From an uncultured Candidatus Saccharibacteria bacterium (lineage in GTDB: Bacteria > Patescibacteriota > Doudnabacteria > UBA920): 64,000 nucleotides of DNA. The stretch lies in contig CAZACP010000005.1 of the NCBI GenBank assembly GCA_964483665.1, positions 1,910 through 65,909 on the forward strand, read 5' to 3'. A model generated the notes under the pieces. It ran no database searches. It was not told the DNA's origin and was given only the letters and a program-made list of their open reading frames with translations. Each line of letters starts with the position of its first letter. Position 1 is the first letter of the stretch. Both the position numbers and the translations under genes were made by a program. Below are positions 3,836 through 54,678 of this stretch, in pieces.

Positions 3836-4028
3836 ACTTTATTCCTTTTAGCAAACTATGCGCCTTTTCAAACTCGCCTGACATAATGCAGGTTTTACGC
3901 TCCTGCTCCATTTGTCGAATTTGACCAGCCGCCGCTTTTAACCACTCCATGCGCTCGGCTCTTGAGGCAAACTTCATAAGTACCAAAATTAAAACGCCAG
4001 ACCTGAAACTGCTTTTGTTGCTACACAA
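3783..4028 (-). CDS. small hypothetical protein upstream of and overlapping recombinase gene (possible directionality factor)
   Basis: 81-aa ORF, start codon lies within 15-bp inverted repeat; no family recognised. Confidence 0.25.
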   Translation of the reverse strand: MCSNKSSFRSGVLILVLMKFASRAERMEWLKAAAGQIRQMEQERKTCIMSGEFEKAHSLLKGIKFARTEFAKQSKIYAKRK

Positions 4029-4168
4029 ACACAGTGGTCTGACGTTTAATTTAGAATACTCTAAACTAATGGCCGTTTCAAGCCGTGTTTGTGTAGCAAA
4101 TTAATTATAATATACGGTGCACCGGTGTACATAGCTGAAATTTTGTGTTGGTTTTACTAGTTATAATT

Positions 4169-4195
4169 GTTAACCTCGTTAACCTAGTTAACTTA
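4169..4195. repeat. three tandem 9-bp direct repeats GTTAACCTC/GTTAACCTA/GTTAACTTA (iteron-like)
   Basis: Read directly; third copy overlaps stop codon of P-loop gene. Confidence 0.6.
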
Positions 4196-5647
4196 AGGGA
4201 GTAGCGGTGTTTGGTCTTCCATTTCCTCTTTTTCTGTACCTAACATGGTTTTTGTTATGCCGTAATACTCTGCTAAATCATGAATTCGTTTATACTCTGA
4301 TGCAGGAACGCTGAATCCTGTTGAATCTCTAAACTTCTTTATGCCTAGCTTGGAAATTATCGTGCCAATCCTTTTGGCCGAAACTACGTAATTCTGGCTA
4401 ACAAGCATTTGTCCGGTTTCTTCGCTTTTGTAATGGGAGTCCGGACGGTCGTTATATTCGTTGTAGAATTTACGGCTATACCAATCAGCAACTTCCTTTA
4501 TACGAATTTTTTTGACGTATGCTTGGTTTTTATCTTTAGCTAACATCTCTTGTAGACAAATAAGTACTTCCGTTTCAAAAGAGTTGTGCAACTGAGACTT
4601 CAATTCGTTGTCTGCTTTAATGCCAAATTCCAAAACTTTATTAACCACGTCTTCGCCTATCAATGCCGCTACTGTTAACATTGCGCTAAAGGTTTGTTTC
4701 ACTCTTGGGGTTTTTATTTTGTCTGTGTATTGCTCAGTAATTTCAACCTTGCCATAATTACTAAATCTGAAAGCAAGAAGCATCCTGCGTAGAAATGCAG
4801 CTATGTCCTCGTTGTCCTTAGACATTGTAATTGGGAAGCCATTTGCTTTGCCGTGATACAGCCACTGTGTTATACAACGACTCTCAAGTGCTTGGTCTCC
4901 AAAGCGTTCTCGTGATGCTAAAATTTTCGGACCAAAAACATCAAAGACTACCGTCTTAAAAGTGCCATCTTTTTTAGGCTCCATTCTCAGGACCGGAAAA
5001 TTCTTTATGTGCCCAGCGTTTAGAATTTTTACGATAATTGACCACATATCCGAATTTTTAAAGTCTGTTTCGTCAAAAACCATAGTACCTTTAATTTGGT
5101 TTAAAGTTCGGAATATTGCCGAATTAGAAGCGGGTCCGCCAAAAAACATAGCCTTATAACAAAGACTACCGACTACTTCTAAAAATCTGGTTTTACCGCT
5201 TCCGAAACCTCCTATAACTCGGAGATAAGGCACAACAGGAAACTTGTCATAAACCCAAGTCATCATTATGTATATGGCCGCTATGGTATAAAATTCTTCG
5301 GGTAAAAATATCCACTTTTTTAAGTGCATCTTAATCGCGGCAAATAACCTATGGTTATCTCCGTAACCTTCAATGTCATTTGGCAATTTCAGAAAGCCGG
5401 ATTTTAACATTTGGTCTGTAGGTGGCCAGGGCAAAATTTTATCCTGCTCGGTATTAATAAGTTCTACGAATTTCACTTCCTCTAAATTTGCTGATTGTCC
5501 GTTTGAAACCACAAATCCGGTTGTGTTAGATTCGGGCTTGTAAAACATTTCCACTAACGAACCATCACTTAAGATGTCTGAAATTTTATAGACATCAGGG
5601 ATTGTTTTGTCCATGTTTAATATCTCCTTTCGCAGCAGCCAGCTCAT
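4193..5647 (-). CDS. P-loop NTPase, putative replication/primase-helicase-associated protein of integrated element
   Basis: Walker A GGFGSGKT and Walker B VVFDETD; 484 aa; context next to recombinase; family not resolved. Confidence 0.5.
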   Translation of the reverse strand: MSWLLRKEILNMDKTIPDVYKISDILSDGSLVEMFYKPESNTTGFVVSNGQSANLEEVKFVELINTEQDKILPWPPTDQMLKSGFLKLPNDIEGYGDNHRLFAAIKMHLKKWIFLPEEFYTIAAIYIMMTWVYDKFPVVPYLRVIGGFGSGKTRFLEVVGSLCYKAMFFGGPASNSAIFRTLNQIKGTMVFDETDFKNSDMWSIIVKILNAGHIKNFPVLRMEPKKDGTFKTVVFDVFGPKILASRERFGDQALESRCITQWLYHGKANGFPITMSKDNEDIAAFLRRMLLAFRFSNYGKVEITEQYTDKIKTPRVKQTFSAMLTVAALIGEDVVNKVLEFGIKADNELKSQLHNSFETEVLICLQEMLAKDKNQAYVKKIRIKEVADWYSRKFYNEYNDRPDSHYKSEETGQMLVSQNYVVSAKRIGTIISKLGIKKFRDSTGFSVPASEYKRIHDLAEYYGITKTMLGTEKEEMEDQTPLLP

Positions 5648-5846
5648 CGTAAATTTCCAAAATACTGCGCGTGTATCCTAGAAGAGTTTCCGAAAGTTGG
5701 CTGCTGTCATTAATTATTTCTTCCGCAGAATCTGCAGAATTTTTAAAGTTTTCTTCTCGCATAAGTTGTGGACGCAAAAAAAGACCTAAGAGCTATGCAC
5801 ACCAAAGGTGCATATAACTCTTAGGTCTCTAATACCTACCCGTTAT

Positions 5847-5876
5847 TTGGGATTTACAGCTGACACCTAGTATAAT
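5847..5876 (+). promoter_or_regulatory. sigma70-like promoter (TTGGGA-N18-TATAAT, alternative TTTACA -35)
   Basis: Consensus -10 TATAAT at 5871-5876 with plausible -35; lies in noncoding ori-like region. Confidence 0.35.
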
Positions 5877-5882
5877 TTCTTA

Positions 5883-6017
5883 CCTAGATGTTCGATGCCG
5901 GTTTGCACCGGTAAACAAGCTAACTGCTTGTAAGATGAACGGTGGATTCCCGTTCGCCACTTATGGCTTTTAAAGCCACAAGATTCCAACAACTGTAAAT
6001 TTTCTATTTTTATTATA
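5883..6017 (+). ncRNA. candidate small RNA: four consecutive stem-loops followed by U-rich tract
   Basis: Hairpins CCGGTttgcACCGG, ACAAGCtaactGCTTGT, GAACGGtggattcCCGTTC, TGGCTTTTAAAGCCA then TTTTCTATTTTTATT; downstream of promoter. Confidence 0.25.
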
Positions 6018-6451
6018 CTCCATCGGTTTAGAGTGTCAAGTTTTTTTGCAAATTTATAAAAATTTTATTAACTTGGTGAACATTGTTAACTTCTAAACAC
6101 TTATAGCAGCCACCATAGGTAGAAATCCTAACGCTTAATATAAATCTATACTGTGCTAAATAAAAATGTACCGAGACTGTCCTGGTGCTTCCGGCAATGC
6201 CGTAAACTGTAAGCCGGTGGTGAATATTTACAAAATGGCCTATTTTTAATACAATATAGCTACAACAAAGCCTAAACCAACAGCTAAAAACTGATGGCAT
6301 GGCGCAATAAAGGTTAATCACCGTGAAGCACAATGACAGCCATCTGTCTTGCCTTTACGCTTCACGGTGTAGCCAGGGAAACCTGGTTTGGCAAGCGGGT
6401 GGCCCTTTTTGTTAGCCACTAGCTTGCAGCATTACAATTAACAATAATAAA

Positions 6452-6775
6452 ATGCTCACAAGCTTTTTGTTAATAGCAACAGCTATTATATTAGTTTCCG
6501 CAAAACTAATTAAAAATGTGGTTATAAAATATAAATTAAAAAATTCTAAACTTGTGCAAAATAAAGAAAACCTGCAGTGCCAGGCATGCGGTTTAGAATT
6601 TCATAAAGATAAATTTTTAGCTCACGTGTTAGATACTGCGACTTTTGATGAAATGGAAATAAAAGAATCTCCGCTTATAAATTTACTTTCTCTAAATAAA
6701 CATAAATATTATATTGGTAAAGCGATTGCTGAAACACAAAAAGCTGGTGGCAACTTGCAGGCTATTAGCGATTAG
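6452..6775 (+). CDS. hypothetical small protein with CxxC
   Basis: 107-aa ORF, N-terminal TM; no family. Confidence 0.3.
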   Translation: MLTSFLLIATAIILVSAKLIKNVVIKYKLKNSKLVQNKENLQCQACGLEFHKDKFLAHVLDTATFDEMEIKESPLINLLSLNKHKYYIGKAIAETQKAGGNLQAISD

Positions 6776-7091
6776 TTGCCTGACTGTTTCTGGCTTTGAT
6801 ATTATTGATAATTTCTTTAAGTTGCGAACTCTGCTCCTGCAGTTTTTGTCGTTCCTGCTGATCGCTAATTTCCAAAAAAGCATTCGCCTTGCCAAATATC
6901 CTGTCCAGCAGTTCCTTTACGGCCGGAATATTGCCTTCGGATGCCTGTTTAATTAAAGCGGCCACTATTGGCCCTTTATTTTTTATAGTTTCTTCAATTA
7001 TATGTTGCCTCAGCGCTTCAGCCTCCAAAGTGTGAGCCGCTTTGCTTCCTTGTGGCCTGCCTGCACCGGTGCGCTTTCCGCCATGTGCCAT
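6765..7091 (-). CDS. phage-associated small protein with N-terminal GGKRxGAGRPxG motif
   Basis: MAHGGKRTGAGRPQGSK N-terminus typical of small phage/mobile-element proteins; divergent from XRE gene. Confidence 0.4.
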   Translation of the reverse strand: MAHGGKRTGAGRPQGSKAAHTLEAEALRQHIIEETIKNKGPIVAALIKQASEGNIPAVKELLDRIFGKANAFLEISDQQERQKLQEQSSQLKEIINNIKARNSQATNR

Positions 7092-7268
7092 AAACTTGAG
7101 TAAAGAATCAAATAATCAAGTTTATCCTATTATTAAGGTTAAAAATTGTACAATTTATAGCTTTTGCACCTGTGGATATTTAAGTGTAAGCTTTTAAATA
7201 TCCTTGATTTTATTGGAAAAAATAAATTATTTGACATAAAATATTCCTTCAGGCATACTAATATTGCT

Positions 7269-7604
7269 ATGAGAAACATAAGCGACCTAGTAAAAAATCA
7301 ACGCACCAAGTTAGGCTTAACAATGGAAGAGGTAGGGGAAAAAGCGAAGCTATCACAAGGATTTGTGTCTAAATTAGAAAAAGGAGACTATAGCGCGGAA
7401 AGTTTGTCCTTGGACACAATAATTCGCCTTGCCGATGCTCTTAAATTAAAGGTTAAAGATTTTCTTGATGACCTTAAAGTTATCGAGTCCGACCAAGCCC
7501 CCTCATTAAATGTATATTTACGACAAAAGTACGACATCCAAAATACGAAAGATGTCCAAATGATTGAAGATATAATTAATAGGTTTATTAATAATAAGCA
7601 ATGA
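7269..7604 (+). CDS. XRE-family helix-turn-helix transcriptional regulator (Cro/CI-type)
   Basis: LVKNQRTKLGLTMEEVGEKAKLSQGFVSKLEKG HTH_3 motif; ORF track start is upstream, first plausible Met at 7269. Confidence 0.7.
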   Translation: MRNISDLVKNQRTKLGLTMEEVGEKAKLSQGFVSKLEKGDYSAESLSLDTIIRLADALKLKVKDFLDDLKVIESDQAPSLNVYLRQKYDIQNTKDVQMIEDIINRFINNKQ

Positions 7605-8113
7605 AGTTTTCGCAGGTCAACCAAAAAGCGGAGCAAACCGCCGCATCAATAATATCAGCCATTGGCAAAGACGAACCGTCCTTGGCTGATTTAATTGCTT
7701 GGTTAACTGAAAATTTTGGAATAAAATTTGAAATTTCTAAAATGGATTTATCCAACCACCCTGTATGCGGTTTGGTATTTCAAAATCCGGCCACGCGAGC
7801 TCATAAAGTAGTTGTTGACCGAAACGATTCAGCAGAAAGGCAGAGGTTTAGCGTATGTCACGAACTCGCTCATATACTGCGGGAAAAGGAATTAGTTTTT
7901 GGTTTTTTTAATGGGGATTTACAAAATCAAGACTATGAAGAACGATTTTGCAACCGCTTTGCCGCGGCTTACCTGATGCCTGAAAAATCTTTTCGGGCAA
8001 AATGGGCATCAACTTCAGAAAACTTTTTAATCAAACGCTACGCAATAGCAGAGTATTTTGGTGTATCAAAAGAAACAGTAATGTACCGAGCATTAGAACT
8101 TGGGCTCCAATAA
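7601..8113 (+). CDS. ImmA/IrrE family metallopeptidase
   Basis: HELAH zinc-binding HExxH motif in conserved context, translationally coupled (ATGA overlap) to XRE gene; classic ImmR/ImmA arrangement. Confidence 0.65.
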   Translation: MKFSQVNQKAEQTAASIISAIGKDEPSLADLIAWLTENFGIKFEISKMDLSNHPVCGLVFQNPATRAHKVVVDRNDSAERQRFSVCHELAHILREKELVFGFFNGDLQNQDYEERFCNRFAAAYLMPEKSFRAKWASTSENFLIKRYAIAEYFGVSKETVMYRALELGLQ

Positions 8114-9271: not shown

Positions 9272-10082
9272 AAGTGAGTATTTAAAAAATTTTGGCACAT
9301 TAGAAAAGAAAGATAAACGTTATTATCTTTTTAGAGCATTTTTGTTATGCCTAAACGTACAAGAAACTCGTGACCTCATCCAAATAGATTTTTCGCAAGA
9401 TATTCTGACCCGTTTTTTAATAACTAAAAAAATCATAGACGATTTAAAGGTCGGACAAAATAAAAACTTAACAAAATTAGTTGAAGAGATTTTGGAAAGA
9501 ATAGCAACACTTACTTCCTATCATAAAAAACAAGCAGCCTCCAAATTTTTAACTGAAATTTTTGATTTTTTGGAGCCTGAATACCAGGATACGGTAATGG
9601 CCTACTTATTTAATTCACCATATATTAATGACCGAAAGAGGTCTTACGGTCTATTAATGAAAAAGTTTGACGAAAGTTATACTGAAAAATTATTAGAACA
9701 TTTAAATCAATACGATGGTGATTATCCATTAGCCGTAATAGTTAGCTGTTGCCAGCCTAAGGTCTTAAATGAAAATTTTGATTTGATAAATAAATATTTT
9801 GAAGACGACTTAATACAGTACGATTGGCAACTTTTAAAAATCCGTACCAAATTTTATGCTAGGTTGTTAAATTTAAGACCTAAATTTATTAATCAACTAA
9901 AACAGAAAGACCCCATTTCTTACATGTATGTCATGAAAGAGACTGGTAAAAAAATAGATTCGGACATGGCGTGGAAAGCTTTTATGGCAAATCCGAACCG
10001 TAGTAGCTTATTTAGGTTATTTAGTGATTTAAAGCTTTGGGATGTTCTTATAAAAATTGACAGATATCAAAAATCGCATTAA
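9264..10082 (+). CDS. hypothetical all-alpha protein, operonic with Zn-ribbon protein
   Basis: 272-aa ORF, no family recognised. Confidence 0.45.
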   Translation: MNRSEYLKNFGTLEKKDKRYYLFRAFLLCLNVQETRDLIQIDFSQDILTRFLITKKIIDDLKVGQNKNLTKLVEEILERIATLTSYHKKQAASKFLTEIFDFLEPEYQDTVMAYLFNSPYINDRKRSYGLLMKKFDESYTEKLLEHLNQYDGDYPLAVIVSCCQPKVLNENFDLINKYFEDDLIQYDWQLLKIRTKFYARLLNLRPKFINQLKQKDPISYMYVMKETGKKIDSDMAWKAFMANPNRSSLFRLFSDLKLWDVLIKIDRYQKSH

Positions 10083-10312
10083 TAAAAGAGTTTTCCAAAA
10101 GCCCATTGCTCACCCAACAGCACCTCGGCGAACACCCAAAGGCGAATTTGGAAAACTAATTCGGCAGTAATAAAAGAGTTTTCCAAAAGCCTCTTGCTCA
10201 TCCAACAACACCTCGGCGAACACCCAAAGGAGAATTTGGAAAACTAATCTGGCTTAAATTTAAAGGTTTTCCAAATGCACCTTGCTCAAGCAAGTGAACC
10301 TGGAAAACTTTT
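10080..10312. repeat. tandem 88-bp direct repeats (2 full + 1 divergent copy), each an internal inverted repeat AGTTTTCCAAA...TTTGGAAAACT
   Basis: Read directly: copies start 10080 and 10168, third copy 10256-10312 ends in T-tract. Confidence 0.7.
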
Positions 10313-10394
10313 TTGTTTTAAACATAAACAAAATCAGCTATAATATAATAAAGATCGTTATTTTTTAGCTTTTTATAAAGATCAAAGCCATATT

Positions 10395-12767: not shown

Positions 12768-12852
12768 CTTACGTTGTCCAAAACCGGAAGCCGGGTTAAG
12801 TTGAGGTAAATCTCTCTCACCAAAGCCAGAAAAGTTTTCCACCTGTCTCGAC

Positions 12853-12951
12853 TTGGTCTACCACGGCACCATTCGGTGCGTGGCTTGACGCCGTTTTTGG
12901 ATCAAGCCATCACTGAATAAAATAAATTATAGACACGGAATGGTGCCGTGG
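12853..12951. repeat. 14-bp perfect inverted repeat CCACGGCACCATTC / GAATGGTGCCGTGG separated by 71 nt
   Basis: Read directly; lies just upstream of GIY-YIG gene. Confidence 0.6.
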
Positions 12952-12991
12952 TAATCCCGTACCGTATGGTACTGGGATACCAAAATCTTAT

Positions 12992-13243: not shown

Positions 13244-13250
13244 TAGCACC

Positions 13251-13280
13251 CGAAAGGGTGTTTTTGATTTGGTTTTATTG
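13251..13280. repeat. 30-bp segment CGAAAGGGTGTTTTTGATTTGGTTTTATTG (copy 1; with CACCC 5' arm forms terminator hairpin)
   Basis: Exact second copy at 13860-13889. Confidence 0.7.
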
Positions 13281-13368
13281 ATGAAGGAATGGTTTTCCAA
13301 AATTTTGGTGTGTAGAAACTTTTTACAAATAAGCGTATAATTAAGACAAATTAGTTTTCAACCATTAG

Positions 13369-13710: not shown

Positions 13711-13859
13711 TAATTTCTGCTTTACAAAGGTACTGATAAACTTCCCTTACCAAAGCCAAATAAGTTTTCCAGCCGTACAGAGCGGGTCTACCAAAGAAAA
13801 ATACCGAAATAAGTTTTCGGTATTTTTCTTTGCCCTGAGCGAAGTCGAAGGGTTAATAA

Positions 13860-13889
13860 CGAAAGGGTGTTTTTGATTTGGTTTTATTG
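13860..13889. repeat. 30-bp segment, exact copy 2 of 13251-13280
   Basis: Exact match; preceded by 18-bp perfect hairpin CAAAGAAAAATACCGAAA/TTTCGGTATTTTTCTTTG at 13790-13832. Confidence 0.7.
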
Positions 13890-13969
13890 TCCAAAGAAAA
13901 ATTTTACAATATAGGGCATTTTAAGTATAAAATATGGTAAACTAAAGAATAATAATAATTTCATAAAAT

Positions 13970-14425: not shown

Positions 14426-15340
14426 ATGTTTAGCGACATAAAAAAAGTAAAAAGGGTTATAAAAATAACCAGCAGAACCACTGTCAGGCCTTTAAGTTCA
14501 AGTGAAATGAAAGTTTTAAGGCCAAAAACGGTAATACATAGAGCAAAAATCAGTAAAAAGCACTTAGCAGATAGCGGTAACAGAACCGTAACAAAAAAAC
14601 CCCAAACATTTAAGCCGGCTGTTAGTTACAGAACAAAATTAGCAGAAAAAAGGGTTTGGGCTATGCCTAAAATTTTGCCTAGCCGCTATGTATTGGGTGT
14701 CGGGCTGTCTATTTTTCTTTTGCTTTCTACTTATTTGAGCGGCATATGGACAGGTGTCTATACCAGCAGAAGTTACGCTGAATTTGTTTTTTCCGAAAGC
14801 CCGCCCGCCTTACAAAACCAGCAGCCTGCCGTGTTACAAGTTGCCGCCCTAAACGGCCTTGGACAAATTACCCTAAGCAGTTCAGACGAAAATTTGTTCG
14901 CCATGTCCATTGACCAGCTGGAAAATGTGTTTGAAAGAAAAAGAATTCAAATGACCGAAAAGCTGTACGATCAAAGGGCGGAAAAAATTAAGGAGTATTT
15001 AACAGGCAAAAAAGCTCCTTTTGCCGAATACGCCGGCACCATTGCCAGGCAGCCGCATTGGCAGCTAATTCTAGCCATTAGTTTTGCGGAAAGCAGCTGG
15101 GGCAAGAATTGCGTGGACAACAACTGCAGCAATATAGGGGTTAAGCCCGGGCATGAACTTTGGAGAGATTACGACAATTATGGCGAGTGGATAGTGGACT
15201 TTAACAGGCTGCTTGAAAGGCGCTATAAAGACTGGACCTTAAAAGAAATGTGCGGCGTGTATGTTAAGCCCTGCAACAAAAACTGGCTTTTGGCTACCAC
15301 TCAGGTCTTAGGGGAGCTAAAAGAAAACGGTATAAATTGA
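14426..15340 (+). CDS. putative peptidoglycan hydrolase (glucosaminidase-like domain) with N-terminal TM
   Basis: AISFAESSWGKN resembles the glucosaminidase/FlgJ active-site region (ALESGWG); weak. Confidence 0.35.
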   Translation: MFSDIKKVKRVIKITSRTTVRPLSSSEMKVLRPKTVIHRAKISKKHLADSGNRTVTKKPQTFKPAVSYRTKLAEKRVWAMPKILPSRYVLGVGLSIFLLLSTYLSGIWTGVYTSRSYAEFVFSESPPALQNQQPAVLQVAALNGLGQITLSSSDENLFAMSIDQLENVFERKRIQMTEKLYDQRAEKIKEYLTGKKAPFAEYAGTIARQPHWQLILAISFAESSWGKNCVDNNCSNIGVKPGHELWRDYDNYGEWIVDFNRLLERRYKDWTLKEMCGVYVKPCNKNWLLATTQVLGELKENGIN

Positions 15341-15431
15341 AAAGATTTAAAAGAATTAAAAGATTGACAAGATTTGATGTAAGAAATCATTTAAATTTTG
15401 TTCAATCATGTCAATCATTTAAATAAATTCT

Positions 15432-16505
15432 ATGAATTACAAAAGCGTTTTAAAGACCTCTCTGCCGTTTTTTGTGGGGGCTATGATTGCGGTTTCGACC
15501 CATGCGGTTGGCCAAAATATAAAACTAAATCCTATAAAGCCCGGCTCTAACAAAGTCATAACCGACGAACAACAGGCTATATTGGCAGTCAGGAAAATTA
15601 AAGCCAGCGTGGTAAATATTATTGGGGATATAAAACCGACTCAAGGCGAAGCTATAAAACTGCAGGCCGGAGAAGTTTCCGGGACAGGGTTTATATGGTC
15701 AAAAGACGGTTATATTGTTACTAACCAACACGTGGTAGAAAACGAGCAAGGCCAATTTTCCGCGGTCTTTTCCGACGGCACAAGTTTTCCGGCTAAAGTT
15801 ATTGGCCGGGACAAGTATAGCGATGTCGCGCTTTTAAAAATTGAAGCCAGTAATTTAACCCCGGCGGTTTTGGGCGACTCAAACGGACTTGAAACCGGGC
15901 AGAGCGTATTTGCCATAGGCAACTCCGTGGGCAAATACCAAAACACGGTTACAAGGGGGGTAGTGTCCGGACTTTCGCGTGCAATTTCTGTTAACGCGCA
16001 GGGCACCTCGGCTCCGCGCTTGCAAAATTTAATTCAGACAGATGCCTCCATAAACCCGGGCAATAGCGGCGGCCCGTTAATAAACATGGCCGGAGAAGTG
16101 GTGGGCATGAACACAGCTATAGACACTACCGCTCAAGGCATAGGGTTTGCCGTACCCGTGAATGTTGTAAAAGCTTCGGTTGAACAAATAAGAACTTTGG
16201 GTAAGGTTAGCCACCCGTACTTGGGAGTAAGTTTTTTAAGCCTTACTAAAAGCATTCAGGAGTGGAATGGGCTGCCTTTAAACGAAGGCGCATTTATTTC
16301 AGAAGTTGTGGCTAAAGGACCGGCCTTTTTTGCAGGCATAAAGCCCGGCGACATAATTACTGCGGTGGACAGGCAAAAAATTACCCAGTATAACGAACTC
16401 GATTCAATGCTGCTTAAATACCAGGCAGGCAATCAAATTTTAGTCAGCCTACTTAGGGACGGTCAAAATTTAGATTTGCCGGTTATACTCGGAGAATATA
16501 AATAA
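15432..16505 (+). CDS. htrA: HtrA/DegP-family trypsin-like serine protease with PDZ domain
   Basis: Catalytic triad context TNQHVV, DVALLKI, GNSGGPL; C-terminal PDZ-like region; signal peptide. Confidence 0.8.
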   Translation: MNYKSVLKTSLPFFVGAMIAVSTHAVGQNIKLNPIKPGSNKVITDEQQAILAVRKIKASVVNIIGDIKPTQGEAIKLQAGEVSGTGFIWSKDGYIVTNQHVVENEQGQFSAVFSDGTSFPAKVIGRDKYSDVALLKIEASNLTPAVLGDSNGLETGQSVFAIGNSVGKYQNTVTRGVVSGLSRAISVNAQGTSAPRLQNLIQTDASINPGNSGGPLINMAGEVVGMNTAIDTTAQGIGFAVPVNVVKASVEQIRTLGKVSHPYLGVSFLSLTKSIQEWNGLPLNEGAFISEVVAKGPAFFAGIKPGDIITAVDRQKITQYNELDSMLLKYQAGNQILVSLLRDGQNLDLPVILGEYK

Positions 16506-17238: not shown

Positions 17239-18183
17239 ATGACAAATCAAGAAATACACAATGTAATTATAATCGGTTCAGGACCTGCCGGCCTTACCGC
17301 AGCCTTATATACCGCCAGAGCGGAATTAAAGCCTTTGGTTATTGCGGGTTTAAATCCGGGTGGCCAGCTTATGCAGACAACCGAGGTGGAGAATTTCCCG
17401 GGCTTTGTAAACGGCATAATGGGTCCTGAGTTAATGGATAATATGATGAAGCAGGTAGAAAGGTTTGGCACGGTTATAAAGCAGGAAAATGTAACCGGAG
17501 TGGATTTTAGCAAAAAGCCTTTTGTTGTTAGAACCGAACAGAATGAATATTTGGCCAAAAGCATAATAATCGCAACCGGAGCAGATGCTAACTGGCTTAA
17601 TTTACCAAACGAGCAAAGGCTTAGGGGTAAAGGCGTTTCGGCGTGCGCGACTTGCGACGGTTTTTTCTTTAAAGGCAAGGACTTGGTTGTAGCCGGCGGC
17701 GGAGACAGCGCCATGGAAGAAGCTAGCTTTTTAACCCGCTTTGCGACAAAAGTGACTTTAATCCATCGTCGGCCGGAGTTTAAAGCTTCTAAAATTATGC
17801 TTAATCGGGTAAAAGAAAACCCAAAAATTAAAATTATTGCGGATGCGATTATTACAGATATTTTAGGCCAGGACAAAGTTGAGGGGGTTAAAATTAAACA
17901 CAACCAAACCGGGCAGGAAGAGGTAATCCAGGCCGGCGGGTTTTTTGTGGCTATTGGCCATACGCCAAACGGGAAAATTTTTGCAGAGGCAGGCGTAGAA
18001 GTTGACCAAAAGGGTTATATAAATGTTTCGCACAATACCCATACTAATATAGAGGGAGTCTTTGTAGCCGGCGATGTGAATGATCCGCGTTATAGGCAGG
18101 CCATAACCGCAGCCGGAATGGGCTGTATGGCGGCACTCGACGTAGAGAAATATTTGGCAGAACATGAGGAAAGTAGTAAGTAG
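17239..18183 (+). CDS. trxB: thioredoxin-disulfide reductase
   Basis: GSGPAG FAD motif, CATC redox-active disulfide, GGGDSA NADPH motif; 314 aa. Confidence 0.85.
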   Translation: MTNQEIHNVIIIGSGPAGLTAALYTARAELKPLVIAGLNPGGQLMQTTEVENFPGFVNGIMGPELMDNMMKQVERFGTVIKQENVTGVDFSKKPFVVRTEQNEYLAKSIIIATGADANWLNLPNEQRLRGKGVSACATCDGFFFKGKDLVVAGGGDSAMEEASFLTRFATKVTLIHRRPEFKASKIMLNRVKENPKIKIIADAIITDILGQDKVEGVKIKHNQTGQEEVIQAGGFFVAIGHTPNGKIFAEAGVEVDQKGYINVSHNTHTNIEGVFVAGDVNDPRYRQAITAAGMGCMAALDVEKYLAEHEESSK

Positions 18184-18207
18184 TATGTAGTATGTAGCAA
18201 AATCCTA

Positions 18208-18636
18208 ATGAACAAGATCTACCAACTACCAACTACCAACTACCAACTAACCGGCAAAGTTATTCGTGGTGACGGTTATGGCAGGAAGCTAGGTTTTCCC
18301 ACGGCCAATATAGACCGCAGGCAGTATGTAAAAGATAAATTGAAGGTCAAATTGGGAATTTGGGCAGGAGCTGTGAGTTATCAGTCATCAATTAACAATT
18401 ATCAATCACGTCCCGCAGCTATAGTAATCGGTCCTGTTGATCGTCGTGGTTTACCTAAGCTCGAAGCGCACTTAATAGGCTTTAAAGGCAATTTATATGG
18501 AAAAAAATTAAGTATATACCTGGGTATATACTTAAGGCCGTTTAAAAAGTTTAAAAGTGAATTGGAATTAATAGAGCAAATACATAGGGATATAAAAAAC
18601 ATTTTAAATTTAAAGAAAAAAATATGGCAGAGTTAG
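18208..18636 (+). CDS. riboflavin kinase (monofunctional, RibF C-terminal-domain-like)
   Basis: GxVxxGxGxGRKLGFPTANI motif; first 15 codons encoded by CTACCAA heptad repeat. Confidence 0.6.
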   Translation: MNKIYQLPTTNYQLTGKVIRGDGYGRKLGFPTANIDRRQYVKDKLKVKLGIWAGAVSYQSSINNYQSRPAAIVIGPVDRRGLPKLEAHLIGFKGNLYGKKLSIYLGIYLRPFKKFKSELELIEQIHRDIKNILNLKKKIWQS

Positions 18637-21597: not shown

Positions 21598-21618
21598 TTT
21601 TTGGTAAGTCAGTGCAAT

Positions 21619-21648
21619 AAAAAAACCCGGGCAAGCCCGGGTTTTTTG
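21619..21648 (+). terminator. rho-independent terminator
   Basis: CCCGGGCAAGCCCGGG + TTTTTTG. Confidence 0.6.
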
Positions 21649-21709
21649 TTTGATGTTATAATTTAGATGTGTTTGGCTACCAACTATTTATTACCAACTA
21701 CTCACTATT

Positions 21710-26222: not shown

Positions 26223-26327
26223 CATAAGTGAAATGACAAAAATGACATAATTGACAAAAATGAGCAAAAATTGCTGTATCAAAATTTTGTCAATTTTGAT
26301 TAATTTTATTTAATTTTTTTCAGTAAA

Positions 26328-26588: not shown

Positions 26589-26697
26589 AAATGAATTTAA
26601 TAATTGATCAAAATTAAGTAAAATTAAATAAAATTGAAATACAAAAATGCAGTTTAATTTTACTTAATTAATAAATTTTACTTAATTTTATTTAATT

Positions 26698-27216: not shown

Positions 27217-27284
27217 AAGTTTTAGAAATTTTTAATTATCAATTTTTAATTTTTAAATAATTTACAAAATTAAAAATTTAAAAA

Positions 27285-30261: not shown

Positions 30262-30579
30262 AAACTTTACGGGTTACAAATAAATACGGATATACAGATA
30301 ACTACACGTTCTGTAGGCATCTGTAGTGTTTCCACCGTAGAGTATTGTAGAGGAATTTTGGGTTTTAGGAAAGAGTGATTTGACTAAAAATATTACGGGT
30401 GTATGCTTAAAGCAAAGAAAGCTACGGGGCTAAAAACCCCCTGCGCAAACTTTGGACCAAGGCCATCCTCTCACCGGAAGAAACGGTATCCTTAAAGCAC
30501 TGAGCGCCAAGAGGAGTATAGAGGTGGAACAGCTGGTCTTAAGTGGGCATCTTTAAAACCTGTTAGGAGGGTTAAGAAG

Positions 30580-35093: not shown

Positions 35094-36932
35094 CTATATT
35101 TCAATAATGACCGGCAAGACCATTGGGCGTCTTTCCGTTTTTTGGTAAAGGTATTCGCCGACTTCGTCGCGAATTACATTTCTAAGGTAAGCGTAATTAG
35201 GTTCTAATTTTTCTTTACCCTTAGTTTCCACCAACTTTCTTACTTCGTGTTTAACTTCCCTTATTAAGTCGTCATTTCCTTTCATGTAAATAAAGCCGCG
35301 GGAAATTATGTCGGGTTGGTTAACCAGCTTGCCGTCTCTTCGGTTTAAGGTAATTATAATCACAAACATACCGTCCTGCGCCATAACCTGGCGGTCTCTT
35401 ATAACCACTTCACCCACGTCGCCAACTCCCAGACCATCTATGAACACATAGCCGGAAGCTATTTTTTCGTCGGTAGTGGCTTTGGCTACGCGGTCACTGC
35501 CTACTTCCAGAATTTGGCCGTTGTCTAAAGTAAATATATTGTCGGCCGGAATGCCCATAGTTTTTGCCAATTCCGCGTGTGCCACTATCATATGGTGTTC
35601 GCCGTGGATGGGCATAAAGTATTTGGGCTTGGTCAAAGCTATCATTAGCTTTAACTCTTCCTGGTGCGCGTGGCCGGAAGTATGGATGTCTAAAGTTTTG
35701 TTGTAAATAACATGGCTGCCTAAGCGGGTCAGGTTAGAAAGCATTGCGGAAATAGCCCGTTCATTGCCCGGAATAGGGGAGGCGGAGACAATAGTGGTGT
35801 CGCCCTTTTTAATTTTCACGGTTTTGTGGTCGCCGCGCGCAATTCTGGCAAGTCCGGCCGCTTCTTCGCCTTGGGCGCCGGTAGTTAAAATAACTATTTG
35901 GTTGTCCGGGAATTTTTTAGACTGCTCGGACTTAATAATTATTTTTGGCTGGATTTTTAAGTAACCCAAAGACAAAGCAATTTCAATGTTATTGACCAAG
36001 CTTCTGCCGGTGACTATGACTTTTCTGTTGTATTTTGCGGCAGCGTCAAACACTTGCTGAATACGGGCGATGTTAGTAGAAAAGTTGGCAAAAATAATTC
36101 TACCTTTTATATCCGCAAAAGTTCGGTCTATAGTAATGCCAATCTCCCTTTCGCTAATACAGTAACCGGGCTTAACCGCGTTGGTGGAGTCGGACATTAA
36201 AAGCAATACGCCTTCTGCGCCGAATTTGGCAATTTTGTCGAATTCTGTCGGTTTGCCGTCGGCCGGAGTGTGGTCGAATTTCCAGTCAGTGGCATAAATA
36301 ATTTGCCCGACCGGAGTGGTAATGCATAAACCCATACCGTCCGGAATGCTGTGGTTAGTGCGGAAAAAGCGAATTTTAAAATTACCCAAAGGCAAAACAT
36401 CGTCTTTGGTTAAGACATTTATTTTGCTGCGGCCTAAAAGGCCAAATTCTTCCAAACGTTTTTTTATAAAGCCCGCAGTCAGCGCCATGGTATACACCGG
36501 AGGGTCGCCAAGCTTGGGTAGTATGTAAGGCACCGCGCCAATGTGGTCTAAGTGGCCGTGAGTAATAACTACGCCCCTTATGCGGCGCTTATTTTCTTCC
36601 AGCCACTTGGTGTCGGGAATAATATAGTCTATGCCCGGCATGGTGTCGTCCGGAAAAGCAAGACCCATATCTATGACTATAATGTCATCGCCAAATTCTA
36701 TGGCTGTCATATTTTCACCGACTTCTTCAACGCCACCCATTGGGATAATGCGTAAATTTTGTCTAGAAGCGGTGTATTTGCTGGTTTGGCCAAGGCCGGA
36801 AACCAAGCTGGTGGCCTTGTTAATAAGCATATCTAAACGGTCTGGTTTTTCACCTGTCTTGTTTGCAGGGGAAGAGGACGGAGTCGGCCGATTATGTTGG
36901 CCAAACCGCCTTGGATGTGTTTTTTTTATCAT
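35094..36932 (-). CDS. rnj: ribonuclease J (MBL-fold, beta-CASP) with ~60-aa low-complexity N-terminal extension
   Basis: HxHxDH motif VITHGHLDHIG, beta-CASP motifs, RNase J C-terminal domain. Confidence 0.8.
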   Translation of the reverse strand: MIKKTHPRRFGQHNRPTPSSSPANKTGEKPDRLDMLINKATSLVSGLGQTSKYTASRQNLRIIPMGGVEEVGENMTAIEFGDDIIVIDMGLAFPDDTMPGIDYIIPDTKWLEENKRRIRGVVITHGHLDHIGAVPYILPKLGDPPVYTMALTAGFIKKRLEEFGLLGRSKINVLTKDDVLPLGNFKIRFFRTNHSIPDGMGLCITTPVGQIIYATDWKFDHTPADGKPTEFDKIAKFGAEGVLLLMSDSTNAVKPGYCISEREIGITIDRTFADIKGRIIFANFSTNIARIQQVFDAAAKYNRKVIVTGRSLVNNIEIALSLGYLKIQPKIIIKSEQSKKFPDNQIVILTTGAQGEEAAGLARIARGDHKTVKIKKGDTTIVSASPIPGNERAISAMLSNLTRLGSHVIYNKTLDIHTSGHAHQEELKLMIALTKPKYFMPIHGEHHMIVAHAELAKTMGIPADNIFTLDNGQILEVGSDRVAKATTDEKIASGYVFIDGLGVGDVGEVVIRDRQVMAQDGMFVIIITLNRRDGKLVNQPDIISRGFIYMKGNDDLIREVKHEVRKLVETKGKEKLEPNYAYLRNVIRDEVGEYLYQKTERRPMVLPVIIEI

Positions 36933-39610: not shown

Positions 39611-39773
39611 ATTTTATATATTTTAACTTAACTCAACTGGCTTATTGTACAAAGTTTATAAGGCAAAGTCAAGAAGGGGGTTTGAACTGACAAAAATGAC
39701 AAAATCGAGGTAATTGACAAAATTATTTATGCATATTTGATGCCTAAATTATGATTATGTCAATTTTCATCAA

Positions 39774-41675
39774 CTATAATTTCAGCTTAATCATATTGGC
39801 TAGTTTTTTTCCAACCACTTTTTCCAATTCCTCAAAACTTGCTAGCTTAATAGTTGCGACTGTGCCGAATTTTTCTTTTAAGAGTTTTTTGGTTTTGGGT
39901 CCAATGCCTGAAATATCATCTAGCGCAGATTTTACCGCCTGCTTGCTCCTTAAGTTTCTGTGGAAAGTTATGCCAAAACGGTGGGCTTCGTCCCTAAGTC
40001 TTTGAAGTAGCTGCAAGGCCGGCTGGTCGTGGCCAAGTATAATTGGGTTTGGATTATTGGGGAGGAAAATTTCCTCAATCCTTTTAGCTAAACCAACGAC
40101 TGGAATTATGAATTTGGAATTATGAATTATGGATACGGCGACACTAAGTTGGCCTTTGCCGCCATCAATTACTATTAAATCCGGTAGTGGCCATTTATCT
40201 TTTTCCATAATTCCAGACTCCTGATTTGTAATTCTACTGAGTCTTCGACTTAACATTTCTCTCATCATGGCGAAATCGTCGGGGGTTTGCTGGCCGCGAA
40301 TTTTAAACTTGCGATACTGCGATTTTAAAGGCTTGCCGTCAACAAAAACCACCATGCTTCCAACCGGGTTGGTTCCTTGAGTGTTTGAAATATCGTAACA
40401 TTCTATTCTTTTTGGCACTTGAGGCAATTTTAAAACTTCTTTTAGCTGGTTAAGCGCGGAATTAATTTTGTCTATTTCGCCGGCTTTTTGAGAAAGGCTC
40501 TGTTTTAAATATTCACCCGCGTTTTGTTCAGCCATATTTAAGAGCCGTAAAGGCTCTTTTTGAGTGGCTTTTATTATGGAGGTTTTTTTGTGAAAGCGGT
40601 TTTTTAACAGCTGTTCTATAAGCGGCTTATTTTCAGGATTGTCTTTTACATAAATTTTGTCAGGCCTGTCAGAAGTTTCTATATAGTAGTCTTCTAAAAA
40701 TTTTTGCAGAATCTCATTCTTTCCGTAGGTATCTGTAGGCGCATTTATTTCTGTGGTTGTGTAGATAAAGTTTTCCTTGTCTATTAATTTTCCTCCGCGG
40801 ACTTTAAACAAATTAATGCAGGTATTTTCGTCTTGTGAAAACAGACCTATTAAGTCCCAATTAACTTTTTTTGGAATTATTACACTTTGTTTTTGTTCTA
40901 CCATTAAAAGGCCCCTAAGCTGGTTTCTTAAGCGCGCGGCTTTTTCAAAGAGCTTTTTGCTTGACGCAATTTTCATTTCTTTTTCTATGTCTTTTTTTAC
41001 GGTTTTAAAATCGCCCTTTAAAAACAGTTTAATTTTTTCTAAATGATCTTTATATTCATTAAGCGGCATAACGCCAATGCATACTCCCGGACAGCGGTGC
41101 AAATGATAGTAAAAACATGGATTGCTTGAAACCTTTGTGTTTGTGCAGTAGGGGAATATGTAGCGTATGGTTTTTAAAACTTCTCTGACTTTGTAGGCAG
41201 CGGTGTAAGGGCCGAAATAATCAGATTTTAGATTTAAGATTTTAGATTTTAGATTTGTTTCATCCCAAAAACGGCGTTTTTCAAAAGCTTGATCCGCGAT
41301 TTTTCGTGTAAGCAGAATTTGCGGTATTTCTGTTGTATAGTCAAAAGCTATAAAGGTGTAGCTTTTGTCGTCGCGCAAAAGAATATTGTATTTGGGCGTG
41401 TGTTTTTGTATTAAAGTGCGTTCTAAATAAAGGCTTTCAAGTTCATTTGAAACTAAAGTGTATTCTAAGTCCGTTGCCTCCTGCATTAAAAACGGGATTT
41501 GCGGACGGTCGTCGTGATTTTGAAAATACTGCTTAACGCGGGCTTTTAAGTTTTTAGCTTTGCCAATATAAAGAATCTTCCCTGTTTTGTCTTTATATAT
41601 ATAGACACCGGGAGTAATAGGAAGAGCAGATATTTTTGATTTTAGATATTGGGATATTGGTTCAGACATATACAA
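39774..41675 (-). CDS. uvrC: excinuclease ABC subunit C
   Basis: N-terminal GIY-YIG, UvrBC-interacting region, endonuclease V-like domain, C-terminal (HhH)2 ISGIGPKTKKLL. Confidence 0.9.
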   Translation of the reverse strand: MYMSEPISQYLKSKISALPITPGVYIYKDKTGKILYIGKAKNLKARVKQYFQNHDDRPQIPFLMQEATDLEYTLVSNELESLYLERTLIQKHTPKYNILLRDDKSYTFIAFDYTTEIPQILLTRKIADQAFEKRRFWDETNLKSKILNLKSDYFGPYTAAYKVREVLKTIRYIFPYCTNTKVSSNPCFYYHLHRCPGVCIGVMPLNEYKDHLEKIKLFLKGDFKTVKKDIEKEMKIASSKKLFEKAARLRNQLRGLLMVEQKQSVIIPKKVNWDLIGLFSQDENTCINLFKVRGGKLIDKENFIYTTTEINAPTDTYGKNEILQKFLEDYYIETSDRPDKIYVKDNPENKPLIEQLLKNRFHKKTSIIKATQKEPLRLLNMAEQNAGEYLKQSLSQKAGEIDKINSALNQLKEVLKLPQVPKRIECYDISNTQGTNPVGSMVVFVDGKPLKSQYRKFKIRGQQTPDDFAMMREMLSRRLSRITNQESGIMEKDKWPLPDLIVIDGGKGQLSVAVSIIHNSKFIIPVVGLAKRIEEIFLPNNPNPIILGHDQPALQLLQRLRDEAHRFGITFHRNLRSKQAVKSALDDISGIGPKTKKLLKEKFGTVATIKLASFEELEKVVGKKLANMIKLKL

Positions 41676-44722: not shown

Positions 44723-44728
44723 AAACAT

Positions 44729-44765
44729 AAAAACCACCTTTCGACAGCCTCAGGGTGGTTTTTAT
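44729..44765 (+). terminator. rho-independent terminator
   Basis: AAACCACC...GGTGGTTT + TTTAT. Confidence 0.5.
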
Positions 44766-44806
44766 GTTATAATTAGTTTAAGTTTACACCTAAAAATAAA
44801 AAGTTT

Positions 44807-47758: not shown

Positions 47759-48505
47759 TTATGGCCGGGAGCGGCGGAGAAGAGCGATGGCGGCGAGGCT
47801 GATGCCTATGAGCCCTAACGTGGTTGGTTCAGGGACGTCGGACTCGAAGTCGAATTTCGTGTTTGCATCACGGGTGTTAATCGTGAAGTTGTCCACGTTA
47901 CCTACAAACCCTGTCCAGCCACCGCCAGCTTTGAACTGTGTTACGCCGCCAGCACGGACACCGGCGTTGGGGAACGCAGTCAACACTTGGGCCCAGGTGC
48001 ACGGACTGCCAATGGAGCAAGCGGCGTTTCCGGGTGCGCCGGAAAACCACCAATTGGCGCCAGTGGCCATGGTATCCCAGGTTTGCCAAGTGTTGTCGGC
48101 AACGGCTTGGGTGTAATAGGCTTCGTATACCAGCCTTCCCATCCATGCGTTGTTGGTGTCCGTCAGATCGGTGTCTATATCGAATTGCAGCGACGGGGCG
48201 AGCGCCGGCCCGCCAGCTGAACGGTACGTGCTGTACGACAGCGTGGAAATGGCAGCAAGAGGCATGAGCTGGTACGCGAGTGTGCCGAGCAACATCCTGT
48301 CGCCGGCGGCGTCAACGCTGAGTTGCGCAGAGCCTGTGCCGAGCGGGGGAGTACCGGGTCCTTCCATTATTGTGCCGGATGCACCGGAACCACTCTCCAC
48401 GACAAATGCCCACCCGTTCATGTTGGACGGGTTTACCACGATGGTTGCGGCGCTGACTGTGAGGCCGAGCGCGAGAAACGCAATAAAGGCGGTTGCCTTC
48501 ATCAT
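47759..48505 (-). CDS. PEP-CTERM sorting-domain secreted protein
   Basis: Signal peptide, C-terminal VPEPTTLGLIGISLAAIALLRRSRP (PEP + TM + basic tail); ~60% GC. Confidence 0.65.
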   Translation of the reverse strand: MMKATAFIAFLALGLTVSAATIVVNPSNMNGWAFVVESGSGASGTIMEGPGTPPLGTGSAQLSVDAAGDRMLLGTLAYQLMPLAAISTLSYSTYRSAGGPALAPSLQFDIDTDLTDTNNAWMGRLVYEAYYTQAVADNTWQTWDTMATGANWWFSGAPGNAACSIGSPCTWAQVLTAFPNAGVRAGGVTQFKAGGGWTGFVGNVDNFTINTRDANTKFDFESDVPEPTTLGLIGISLAAIALLRRSRP

Positions 48506-48583
48506 AATAATTCACTCCTGTTTGTGTAGTGACAAAAAAAGAGGGCTCTAGATTTCGCTAGGATCCTCCTTAATTGACATAAA

Positions 48584-48612
48584 AGTATATCTTTTATTAG
48601 GGTTTTTGTCAA
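48584..48612 (-). promoter_or_regulatory. consensus sigma70 promoter TTGACA-N17-TATACT for PEP-CTERM gene
   Basis: Minus-strand TTGACAAAAACCCTAATAAAAGATATACT. Confidence 0.45.
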
Positions 48613-48725
48613 TTAAATGGTGAAGCCTGATTCCTGCGGCCTCTTTCATTTCGGTGACGGAGGCTGCTTTTTATATTCAAATTATTTATTTTAAAGGCTC
48701 ATCTCCGCCAGCCGGCGGATGAGCC

Positions 48726-48781: not shown

Positions 48782-48855
48782 TGGTGGACCTTGGGAGAAT
48801 CGAACTCCCGCATGCCGGATGCAAACCGGCCGCACTACCACTATGCTAAAGGCCC
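48782..48855 (-). tRNA. tRNA-Ala (anticodon UGC)
   Basis: GGGCCTTTAGCATAGTGGTAG...TTTGCAT...GGGAGTTCGATTCTCCCAAGGTCCACCA; G3:U70 pair present. Confidence 0.8.
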
Positions 48856-48912
48856 TTTAAAAGATTTTGGATTGCTGATTTGAGATTTTAGATTTAAAAA
48901 CGGACAATTAGA

Positions 48913-49411: not shown

Positions 49412-49486
49412 TGGTGGGTGCGGGAAGGATCGAACTTCCGACCCCGTCATTATCAGTGACGTGCTCTACCACTGAGCTACGCACCC
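49412..49486 (-). tRNA. tRNA-Ile (anticodon GAU)
   Basis: GGGTGCGTAGCTCAGTGGTAGAGCACGTCACTGATAATGACGGGGTCGGAAGTTCGATCCTTCCCGCACCCACCA. Confidence 0.8.
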
Positions 49487-54172: not shown

Positions 54173-54255
54173 AATAAATGACAAAAATTAAAAAAATGAT
54201 AAAAATTAAGTGCAGAAATACAGGAATATTTTTGCCATTTATGTTCATTTAAATT

Positions 54256-54678
54256 ATGGCTTATTTTGAAAAACAAAAATTTAATATTTTAGAGTTAGTT
54301 TTAAGAAAAGATTCGCCAAGGAAAATTTTGTTGGTAGAACCCGAGTATTATTTGCGGGTACTGTTAAAAAATTTATTGGAAAAAGAAAATTTTTTGGTTG
54401 CCAGCGCAGAAAAGATATCCGAAAGCAAGTTAATTTTAGAATTTTTTGAGCCAGATATTGCTGTTATCAGCCCGCATTCTGAAAAAGATCTGCAAGTTTT
54501 TTTATTAGGGCTTTCTGATTTAAGAAAGCAGTACCAAACTTTACGTATCTTAACTGTAGGGCACCGTTTACCGGTTGAAGCAATGAAGAAAATTATGGAT
54601 TTAGGAGTGTCTTCTCATTTGGAAAGAGCCTTAACAAGACCGCATGATATTGCTGCGGTAATAAAAACTTTATTTTAG
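54256..54678 (+). CDS. receiver-domain-like protein lacking canonical phospho-acceptor residues
   Basis: CheY-like alternating pattern KILLVEPE...DIAVISP but the acidic pocket DD and phospho-Asp appear replaced. Confidence 0.35.
   Translation: MAYFEKQKFNILELVLRKDSPRKILLVEPEYYLRVLLKNLLEKENFLVASAEKISESKLILEFFEPDIAVISPHSEKDLQVFLLGLSDLRKQYQTLRILTVGHRLPVEAMKKIMDLGVSSHLERALTRPHDIAAVIKTLF

Follow-up and report, generated by a model that had tools for sequence, protein, structure and literature searches.

In Neisseria, the paired ends of the Correia elements (CREE/NEMIS) form an RNase III substrate, and the expression of neighbouring genes is altered (PMC2649163, PMC10969869). The element described here is like CREE/NEMIS in belonging to a dispersed class of ~100-150 bp, with inverted ends, found intergenically near gene starts and co-transcribed with the adjacent gene. 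Features peculiar to CREE are terminal inverted repeats of 26 bp, a duplicated TA target, an IHF site, and promoters that arise at the ends and point outward. Unlike CREE, the present element has arms of tandem 9-bp units, no target duplication that could be found, separate upstream promoters, and a Patescibacterium as host. The ERIC sequences exert orientation-dependent effects on mRNA decay (PMC10969869). ERIC/IRU of Enterobacteria and Vibrio (~127 bp) share with the present element an imperfect palindrome in transcribed intergenic regions; unlike it, they are unique-sequence palindromes without internal tandem units, usually located 3' of genes, and unrelated in sequence. Wilson and Sharp reportedly found in 2006 that ERIC is conserved across species beyond the expectation for junk DNA. 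For REPs, roles in mRNA stabilisation and operon polarity have been proposed, and REPINs are their inverted doublets (PMC3116915, PMC3733652). REP, BIME, and REPIN sequences are also dispersed extragenic palindromes occupying intercistronic spacers, with a length of 20-40 bp, a high G+C content, a GTAG or CGTC tag, and mobilisation by RAYT transposases. The present element, unlike REPs, is ~90 bp long, A+T-rich, and untagged, and neither a RAYT nor a Y1 transposase was seen among the scanned proteins of the window (the whole 64,000-nt stretch of DNA analysed in this study); it was not assigned to the REP/REPIN class.

Operator arrays, such as the omega heptads, the MetJ metboxes, the ParR/ParG iterons, and the Fur hexamer arrays, consist of contiguous short units in direct and inverted orientation and in variable number. 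They lie over or ahead of the promoters of a few operons, and the protein that binds them is known; the present element has instead tens of copies in leaders, 9-bp units, and a putative binder. The TIGR arrays, part of the RNA-guided TIGR-Tas systems of CPR bacteria and phages, have a conserved edge and loop (box C/D), variable 9-nt spacers, and an adjacent Nop-domain tas gene (PMC12045711, 2026 preprint). A TIGR array with tas was rejected for the present locus, the units being conserved and not variable, with no Nop-domain protein among the scanned window proteins. DnaA boxes, CtsR, PhoB/PhoP, and Fur/Zur sites, compared with the unit consensus, do not appear to fit in sequence, spacing, or gene set, and the same applies to IHF sites, attC, uptake sequences, and Y-box/Csp sites.

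The initial annotation had reported direct-repeat arrays ahead of efp, secG, and a pseudo-receiver gene. The three strings it quoted were verified in the sequence exactly as given, namely TTTTTGCTCATTTTTGTCAATTATGTCATTTTTGTCA on the minus strand at 26271..26234 (site 1, before efp), TTTTGTCAATTACCTCGATTTTGTCATTTTTGTCA on the minus strand at 39724..39688 (site 2, before secG), and ATGACAAAAATTAAAAAAATGATAAAAATTAAG on the plus strand at 54178-54210 (site 3, before a receiver-like gene). The arrays are real but only half of the feature, as an inverted array faces each of them across a short centre. The TGACAAAAAT array is thus one arm of a ~90-bp repeated element made of two opposed arrays of 3-5 tandem 9-bp units each, with the unit consensus WAATTGACA on one arm and TGTCAATTW on the other; the centre of ~20 bp usually contains CTGCA or CTGCG. 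A pattern search found the inverted pair AATTGACA-N20-45-TGTCAATT three times in the window vs. 0 expected. Pfam searches of the window identified EF-P, S18, SSB, S6, SecG, UvrC, a T2SSE/PilB ATPase, and a weak receiver-like domain, which bore out efp and secG as neighbours of the arrays and left the pseudo-receiver gene with that weak domain.

Copy 1 (site 1; 26234..26321, minus strand) matched profile positions 4-90 of a family profile HMM, built from an alignment of 42 copies and searched with nhmmer (E 7e-12 window-only, 1.8e-10 for all loci), and aligns end to end with 41 other family copies. It fills the spacer between rpsR and efp, both on the minus strand. Its start-proximal arm, the array reported before, covers 26234-26271 with the units TGACAAAAA/TGACATAAT/TGACAAAAA/TGAGCAAAA on the plus strand; the centre (about 26272-26283) contains TTGCTGTATC, and the distal arm covers 26284-26321. 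A pyrimidine-rich linker (26226..26233, TTTCACTT on the minus strand) without a Shine-Dalgarno core separates the last unit from the efp ATG (first base 26225); the EF-P domains start from residue 4 of the efp ORF.

Copy 2 (site 2; 39687..39778, minus strand) was delimited by profile positions 16-91 (E 7e-10 window-only) and by alignments. It occupies the spacer from uvrC to secG (both minus strand) and abuts or overlaps the uvrC stop codon; its centre is ~20 nt longer, and one unit is degenerate (AAATCGAGG). The first base of the secG ATG is 39610, and site 2 stands 76 nt from it. A sigma-70-type promoter-like sequence TTGACT-N17-TACAAT with 10 of 12 consensus matches (39644..39672, minus strand) is located between copy 2 and secG. 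A weaker promoter-like sequence, TAGCCA-N18-TATAGT (39773..39802, minus strand; 9 of 12 matches), has its -10 hexamer ending at the distal edge of copy 2, as is seen elsewhere in the family.

The degenerate copy 3 (site 3; 54176..54260, plus strand) gave window E-values of 5e-4 on the plus strand and 9e-4 on the minus strand. It fills the spacer from pilB to the receiver-like gene (both on the plus strand; ATG at 54256), with the units TGACAAAAA/TTAAAAAAA/TGATAAAAA, the centre AAGTGCAG, and the opposite arm TTTTTGCCA/TTTATGTTCA/TTTAAATT. It also contains a 9/12 promoter-like match, ATGACA-17-AAAAAT; a reading of site 3 as a plain unrelated promoter was withdrawn, since the profile and Tandem Repeats Finder (TRF) revealed the 9-bp lattice here as well, with TGCAG in the centre and an arm opposite. 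Copy 4, of the AGATTGACA subfamily (15338..15424, plus strand; nhmmer window E 3e-4, TRF period 9), fills the spacer ahead of an HtrA-like protease gene with its ATG at 15432. The next unrelated match of the profile in the window had an E-value of 0.16. An inverted pair AATTGACA…TGTCAATT at 48572..48614 (minus strand) was dropped as a family copy: its nhmmer E-value exceeded 4, and its minus-strand TTGACA is the -35 hexamer of a TTGACA-N17-TATACT promoter-like site (score 11) upstream of the gene at 47759-48505, so that a promoter fits better than the family.

The motif is more frequent than expected by chance, with 14 occurrences of TGACAAAA vs. 4.6 ± 2.2 in dinucleotide shuffles, none of 100 of which reached 14; with up to one mismatch, the 10-mer TGACAAAAAT occurs 30 times in the window against 14.4 expected. 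Nine of the 14 exact TGACAAAA copies fall within the ~11% of the window outside the ORF map (binomial estimate ~2e-6), six of these nine belonging to sites 1 and 2. The proposed spacing of 10-11 bp did not hold. The units start at 26234, 26243, 26252, and 26261 in site 1 and at 39688, 39697, 39706 (degenerate), and 39715 in site 2; TRF reported period 9 with 4.4 copies at 26231-26271, period 9/18 at 54170-54209, and period 9 at 15336-15375. The start-to-start distance is therefore 9 bp, with which the copies do not lie on one face of the helix, contrary to the phasing that had been suggested.

That the sites are related and share a cis element was upheld, as one profile matches all three with the window E-values given above, and the fourth in addition. 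The three sites and 15338-15424 are thus copies of one dispersed ~90-bp repeat family. The 42-copy consensus of ~92 positions, ATTGAACAAAATTTAAAAAATTGACATAATTGACAAAATT-aaaCTGCAGttt-AATTTTGTCAATTTTGCTCAATTATGTCAATTTTGTCAAT, is A+T-rich and ~90 nt long. In total, 49 elements were found across the fetched loci, and four copies lie in 64 kb of the window. Cut in register, the arms contain 3-5 tandem 9-bp units with conservation falling outward; the length of the centre is constant, and length differences amount to whole 9-bp units. A metagenome scan with the pattern AAAATTGACAWAAT-N15-45-TTTTGTCAATT returned 55 loci, ~40 of them with the same architecture and often several per sample. The home of the family is a clade of Ca. 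Doudnabacteria-like Patescibacteria. The element represents a new family within a general kind of repeat that is already known, and not a classical upstream transcription-factor site.

The relatives L001-L025 were obtained by a GTDB genome scan with EF-P (EF-P identity of 71-94%), which also assigned the window to the Ca. Doudnabacteria-like Patescibacteria. The exact 14-mer TGACAAAAATGACA was present in none of 80 EF-P loci, and L001, the closest relative found, contained one AATTGACA-N20-45-TGTCAATT occurrence. In every one of L002-L025, the rpsR-efp spacer (~110 nt upstream of efp) contains opposed arrays of short tandem units, whose sequence is lineage-specific, with unrelated units and periods of ~7-9 bp. 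The spacers of L013 and L016 have a G+C-rich hairpin in the centre, and in several relatives the rpsR-efp units are common to neighbouring spacers of the same genome. Such differing units in the same architecture argue against one conserved regulator and make a structural or positional role more likely than recognition of TTGACA itself.

Other tandem repeats were observed in the window. Three A+T-rich spacers (26589-26697, 27217-27284, and 55791-55868) consist of opposed tandem repeats of other units with periods of 10, 7-8, and 17, and two such spacers fold far better than shuffles (ssb-rpsR, z -4.5; pilT-pilC, z -4.7). The same architecture built from other sequences means that several such families coexist in one genome. 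At 18171-18249, two repeats, (AAGTAGT)x3.9 and then a perfect (CTACCAA)x4.4, stand on either side of the ATG at 18208, which belongs to a riboflavin-kinase-like gene; the 7-bp repeat after this first ATG suggests that the annotated start may be wrong. CTACCAA-like repeats also occur at 21680-21709, before the ATG at 21710, and repeats of this type resemble the CTACTAA array of the L023 rpsR-efp spacer. An 88-bp tandem repeat at 10076-10394 (2.4 copies, 86% match, plus a third degenerate copy) has an inverted repeat GTTTTCCAAA…TTTGGAAAAC in each unit. GTTTTCC-type motifs are found again in the next three spacers (12768-12991, 13244-13368, and 13711-13969), which surround genes for a 790-aa ABC/SMC-like ATPase and a small GIY-YIG protein.

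The element occupies the 5' leader or the intercistronic spacer, and its end normally lies 5-10 nt before the next start codon. Across the fetched loci, 30 elements are in tandem, 8 in divergent, and 3 in convergent contexts, all three convergent cases depending on doubtful ORF calls. The stop codon of the upstream gene is located within ~20 nt of one element end or inside the first unit. At the other side, 40 of the 49 elements have, from -3 to +20 nt of one end, a start codon that opens an ORF of 60 aa or more, compared with 35% of random placements; this adjacency is also found in roomy divergent spacers. Exceptions are L099, L130, L124 4305, and L101, which are not start-adjacent. The distance from the last unit to the ATG is mostly 6-8 nt, with a pyrimidine-rich linker between. 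Among the genes that follow the element, rpmE was found in four species and that for an SBP_bac_5 transporter protein in three; the others include ssb, efp, rpsR, mreB, gyrA, and htrA. Most of these names were read from translations; Pfam confirmed the window counterparts of ssb, efp, rpsR, SBP, and htrA. Relative to the downstream gene, one polarity prevails at 20:8 overall (28 copies) and 7:1 among strong calls. Translation of the arms in frame with the downstream gene was rejected, as the last unit-ATG distances modulo 3 (11:10:9) show no frame preference. Longest-ORF calls often extended ORFs into the AUG-rich arms.

Where no gene abuts the far end of the element, a canonical sigma-70-type promoter ends 1-17 nt before it. 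Upstream of rpmE, TTGACG-17-TATAAT (L102 and L116) or TTGACT-17-TAAAAT (L126) is followed by the element 2-3 nt later, and in L086, L088, L119, and L135 a TATAAT or TACAAT hexamer abuts the element or lies up to 17 nt upstream. Transcription should therefore start at about the first unit, and the whole element should be transcribed, with starts predicted from promoter consensus matches. Site 2, with TTGACT-17-TACAAT between the element and secG, is the exception. These data do not agree with a site upstream of promoters, as the family elements lie downstream of the promoter, in the leader, or between cistrons, nor with the unusual promoter architecture suggested in the initial annotation, as a separate canonical TTGACx-N17-TATAAT is found directly upstream wherever a promoter is needed. 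With a period of 9 bp and a position downstream of the promoter or between cistrons, the element does not correspond to an upstream activator array of the OmpR/PhoB type. Taken as a whole, the earlier interpretation is partly supported, and it is possible that the 9-bp units are recognised by a putative sequence-specific DNA-binding factor.

The arms might themselves be overlapping sigma-70 promoter arrays, with TTGACA as the -35 hexamer, TGACAWAAT as an extended -10, 16-17 bp spacers resulting from the 9-bp period, and each arm firing across the centre, so that the element would be a compact bidirectional promoter. TTGACA is the exact -35 consensus, and most family arms match at no less than 9.5 of 13.5 (e.g., TTGAAC-17-TGaCATAAT and TTGACA-16-TGaCAAAAT), with these -10s ending 6-22 nt before the centre; promoter-like matches intrinsic to the repeat are present in many family copies other than those of the window. 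On the plus strand, ATGACA-17-AAAAAT was found at sites 1 and 3 and ATGACA-16-CAAAAT at site 2. However, at a score of at least 9.5, a promoter-like match is absent from both strands of site 1, and the one within the repeat of site 2 is on the strand pointing away from secG. The element was accordingly not classed as a sigma-70 promoter with hexamers 16-18 bp apart directed toward the gene served. In addition, one arm would fire antisense into the upstream gene in the 30 tandem contexts, non-TTGACA units occupy the same layout in relatives, and the separate canonical promoter already stands directly upstream wherever there is no upstream gene. A promoter function of the arms is thus considered very unlikely.

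Most copies lie between co-directional genes, and the layout of an A-rich arm, a hairpin, and then a U-rich arm, with G+C-rich central hairpins in some members (e.g., L097), would also suit a weak intrinsic terminator or attenuator tuning read-through between cistrons. The organism uses canonical G+C-rich terminators in its convergent spacers, whereas no terminator-like site was listed within sites 1, 2, or 3, where the stems are A-U-rich; a G+C-rich stem with a U tract directly after it is not a property of the element. Moreover, in rpmE, mreB, and other mRNAs the element starts at about +1, a position in which termination would serve little purpose, and robust convergent cases are absent. 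Attenuation was accordingly given the least credence of the readings considered and appears most improbable. In three other spacers (21598-21709, 44723-44806, and 57665-57752), a canonical G+C-rich terminator hairpin with a T-run passes directly into an extended -10 (TGnTATAAT) for the next gene.

Folding of the copies was compared with that of dinucleotide shuffles, giving a mean z of -4.0, with 36 of 42 copies below -2; the strong window copies at sites 1 and 2 fold weakly (z -1.5 and -0.7; with flanks, -1.65 and -1.85). Complementarity between arms is lower within elements (0.376) than between elements (0.420), and native arm pairs are less stable than chimeric left/right pairs (-21.6 vs. 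-24.4 kcal/mol). No covariation between the arms was thus detected by these two comparisons, from which it follows that the pairing potential is real but not kept by compensatory change. A long RNA hairpin maintained by selection was rejected on the same arm-complementarity and chimera-folding data, while the potential to form a hairpin was retained. Apart from tRNAs and chance microRNA hits, Rfam gave no match at the gathering score or at E <= 1, and, with neither an Rfam match nor covariation, the element was not classified as a structured cis-regulatory RNA. Two long non-coding stretches, 5648-6027 (380 nt) and 30262-30579 (318 nt), likewise had no Rfam match; the second contains TTGACT-16-TATGCT at 30380-30407, followed by a ~170-nt G+C-richer leader before a TonB_C-domain gene. 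The tRNA-Ile(GAT) and tRNA-Ala(TGC) genes are usually paired in rRNA spacers. At 48782-49486 of the window, 556 bp separate the two on the minus strand, no rRNA gene is close by, and tRNA-Ala is followed by two to three G+C-rich terminator-like hairpins.

The predicted unpaired probability was 0.54 for the true AUG and 0.65 for the linker, compared with 0.34 for the upstream AUGs in the arms (p = 9e-6). A Shine-Dalgarno core is lacking at all 30 starts linked to an element. Window-wide, a core (GGAG, GAGG, or AGGA, 3-20 nt before the first ATG) was found for only 10 of 65 genes (ORFs of at least 80 aa), and most starts are preceded by A/T-rich sequence. Initiation without a Shine-Dalgarno sequence is therefore the norm here, and the element was rejected as a replacement for it, the absence of the core not being peculiar to the element.

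We infer that the element acts in cis on mRNA as a co-transcribed leader repeat of the Correia/ERIC/REP kind, an explanation to which an even chance is assigned. The AU-rich arms would pair to form an imperfect hairpin, located at the 5' end of monocistronic mRNAs and between the cistrons of operons. This hairpin would bury the AUG-containing arms and leave the pyrimidine-rich linker and the true AUG open, which may allow Shine-Dalgarno-independent initiation. It would probably also set mRNA ends and stability, and the organism encodes an RNase J (35094-36932). Site 2, far from the secG ATG and with its own intervening promoter-like site, counts against a role in leader RNA.

Among four species, the copies in the rpmE leaders share 74-89% identity (86-95% of aligned columns), and random family pairs have a mean identity of 78 ± 5%. 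The adjacent rpmE genes have 62-72% nucleotide identity, and their 4-fold sites are only 32-41% identical in five of six pairs, i.e., saturated. The likeness of the leaders despite saturated synonymous sites is not neutral decay and indicates purifying selection or continual homogenisation. Copies are also exchanged between leaders among close relatives. The htrA leader of the window (15332-15438) and the efp leader of L001 (2546-2649), although not orthologous, share 88.8% identity, and the likeness extends up to the ATG; syntenic genes of the window and L001 share ~77%. In L001, a TTGACA-type copy lies between rpsF and ssb and not in the rpsR-efp spacer. Different subfamilies at the same spacer in close relatives imply turnover, and either mobility or recombination could account for the swap at rpsR-efp between the window and L001.

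Such turnover would also be expected of a selfish MITE- or REP-like element that does nothing for the host and is tolerated in what little non-coding DNA a compact genome has. The family resembles MITEs in being ~90 bp, non-coding, and present in many dispersed copies in both orientations, and its terminal inverted repeats are inverted arrays of the same unit family. Its two arms are of distinct types, like transposon ends, and only ~38-56% complementary outside the innermost unit. Upstream ORFs often stop inside the first unit, the subfamily differs between relatives at an orthologous spacer, and the families are lineage-specific. Against this, orthologous copies persist at the same loci in 3-4 species with the identity given above for rpmE at saturated synonymous sites, start codons are adjacent even where a divergent spacer is roomy, and few or no copies are found in convergent spacers. 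Direct repeats flanking the ends were no longer than in flanks paired across elements, so no target-site duplication exceeded the control, with fuzzy boundaries and old copies. No transposase was seen in the window except a serine recombinase (2309-3835) in an unrelated island. A purely selfish element is therefore regarded as unlikely. That island (2268-8113), a probable integrated element adjoining tRNA-Glu, contains this large serine recombinase, a DUF5681 protein, and a pair of Xre-type HTH and ImmA/IrrE (Peptidase_M78) genes (7164-8113).

Conservation of orthologues at ~90%, position by position, exceeds what a loose AU hairpin needs and suggests a sequence-specific partner. Together with the lack of covariation, it is poorly explained by a hairpin, which keeps alive a reading of the element as an operator lattice. 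According to it, an oligomerising factor binds the 9-bp units in double-stranded DNA, and the opposed arrays nucleate head-to-head filaments just past the transcription start or between cistrons, acting as a roadblock or global repressor of housekeeping operons; the transcription-factor array of the initial annotation would thus be shifted downstream of the promoter. Ribbon-helix-helix proteins (omega, MetJ, and ParG/ParR) and Fur bind contiguous arrays of short units in both orientations, and the contiguous two-orientation arrays of the element recall these targets. Symmetric recognition of DNA would give rise to inverted arrays that are not selected for pairing, as is the case here, and the nearly position-specific conservation across species, the constant centre with length changes in whole 9-bp units, and the location of site 2, L099, and L130 upstream of promoter-like sites are in agreement. 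On the other hand, a candidate protein was not found, and none is consistently adjacent; the unrelated units in the same layout of close relatives mean that the factor must change specificity fast; and the 5-10 nt coupling to the start codon, the likeness up to the ATG, and the polarity bias are unexpected for a symmetric DNA site. Such a lattice is therefore considered rather unlikely. Its genome-wide form, in which a single putative oligomerising factor would switch tens of housekeeping operons together (those for ribosomal proteins, EF-P, SSB, MreB, GyrA, and transporters), is decidedly unlikely. The switch factor could be a protein or, more speculatively, an RNA-guided effector with 9+9-nt split guides, similar to the TIGR-Tas repressors of CPR bacteria.

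To our knowledge, almost nothing is known about the control of gene expression in Patescibacteria (CPR), whose genomes are tiny with few regulators, and the present genome is mostly without Shine-Dalgarno sequences. If the lattice reading were true, the element would switch growth globally in an organism that has hardly any regulators, and its lineage-specific units would reflect co-evolution of factor and sites. Should the element prove to be no more than a tolerated mobile repeat, a new repeat family and the swapping of leaders in a streamlined genome would still have been recorded. The element may be relevant to the annotation of MAGs of this clade, as ORF calls enter its AUG-rich arms, and the conserved consensus could be tried as a clade marker. 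A conserved ~90-nt element that separates the predicted transcription start of many core genes from their start codon provides a testable handle on the control of gene expression in CPR bacteria.
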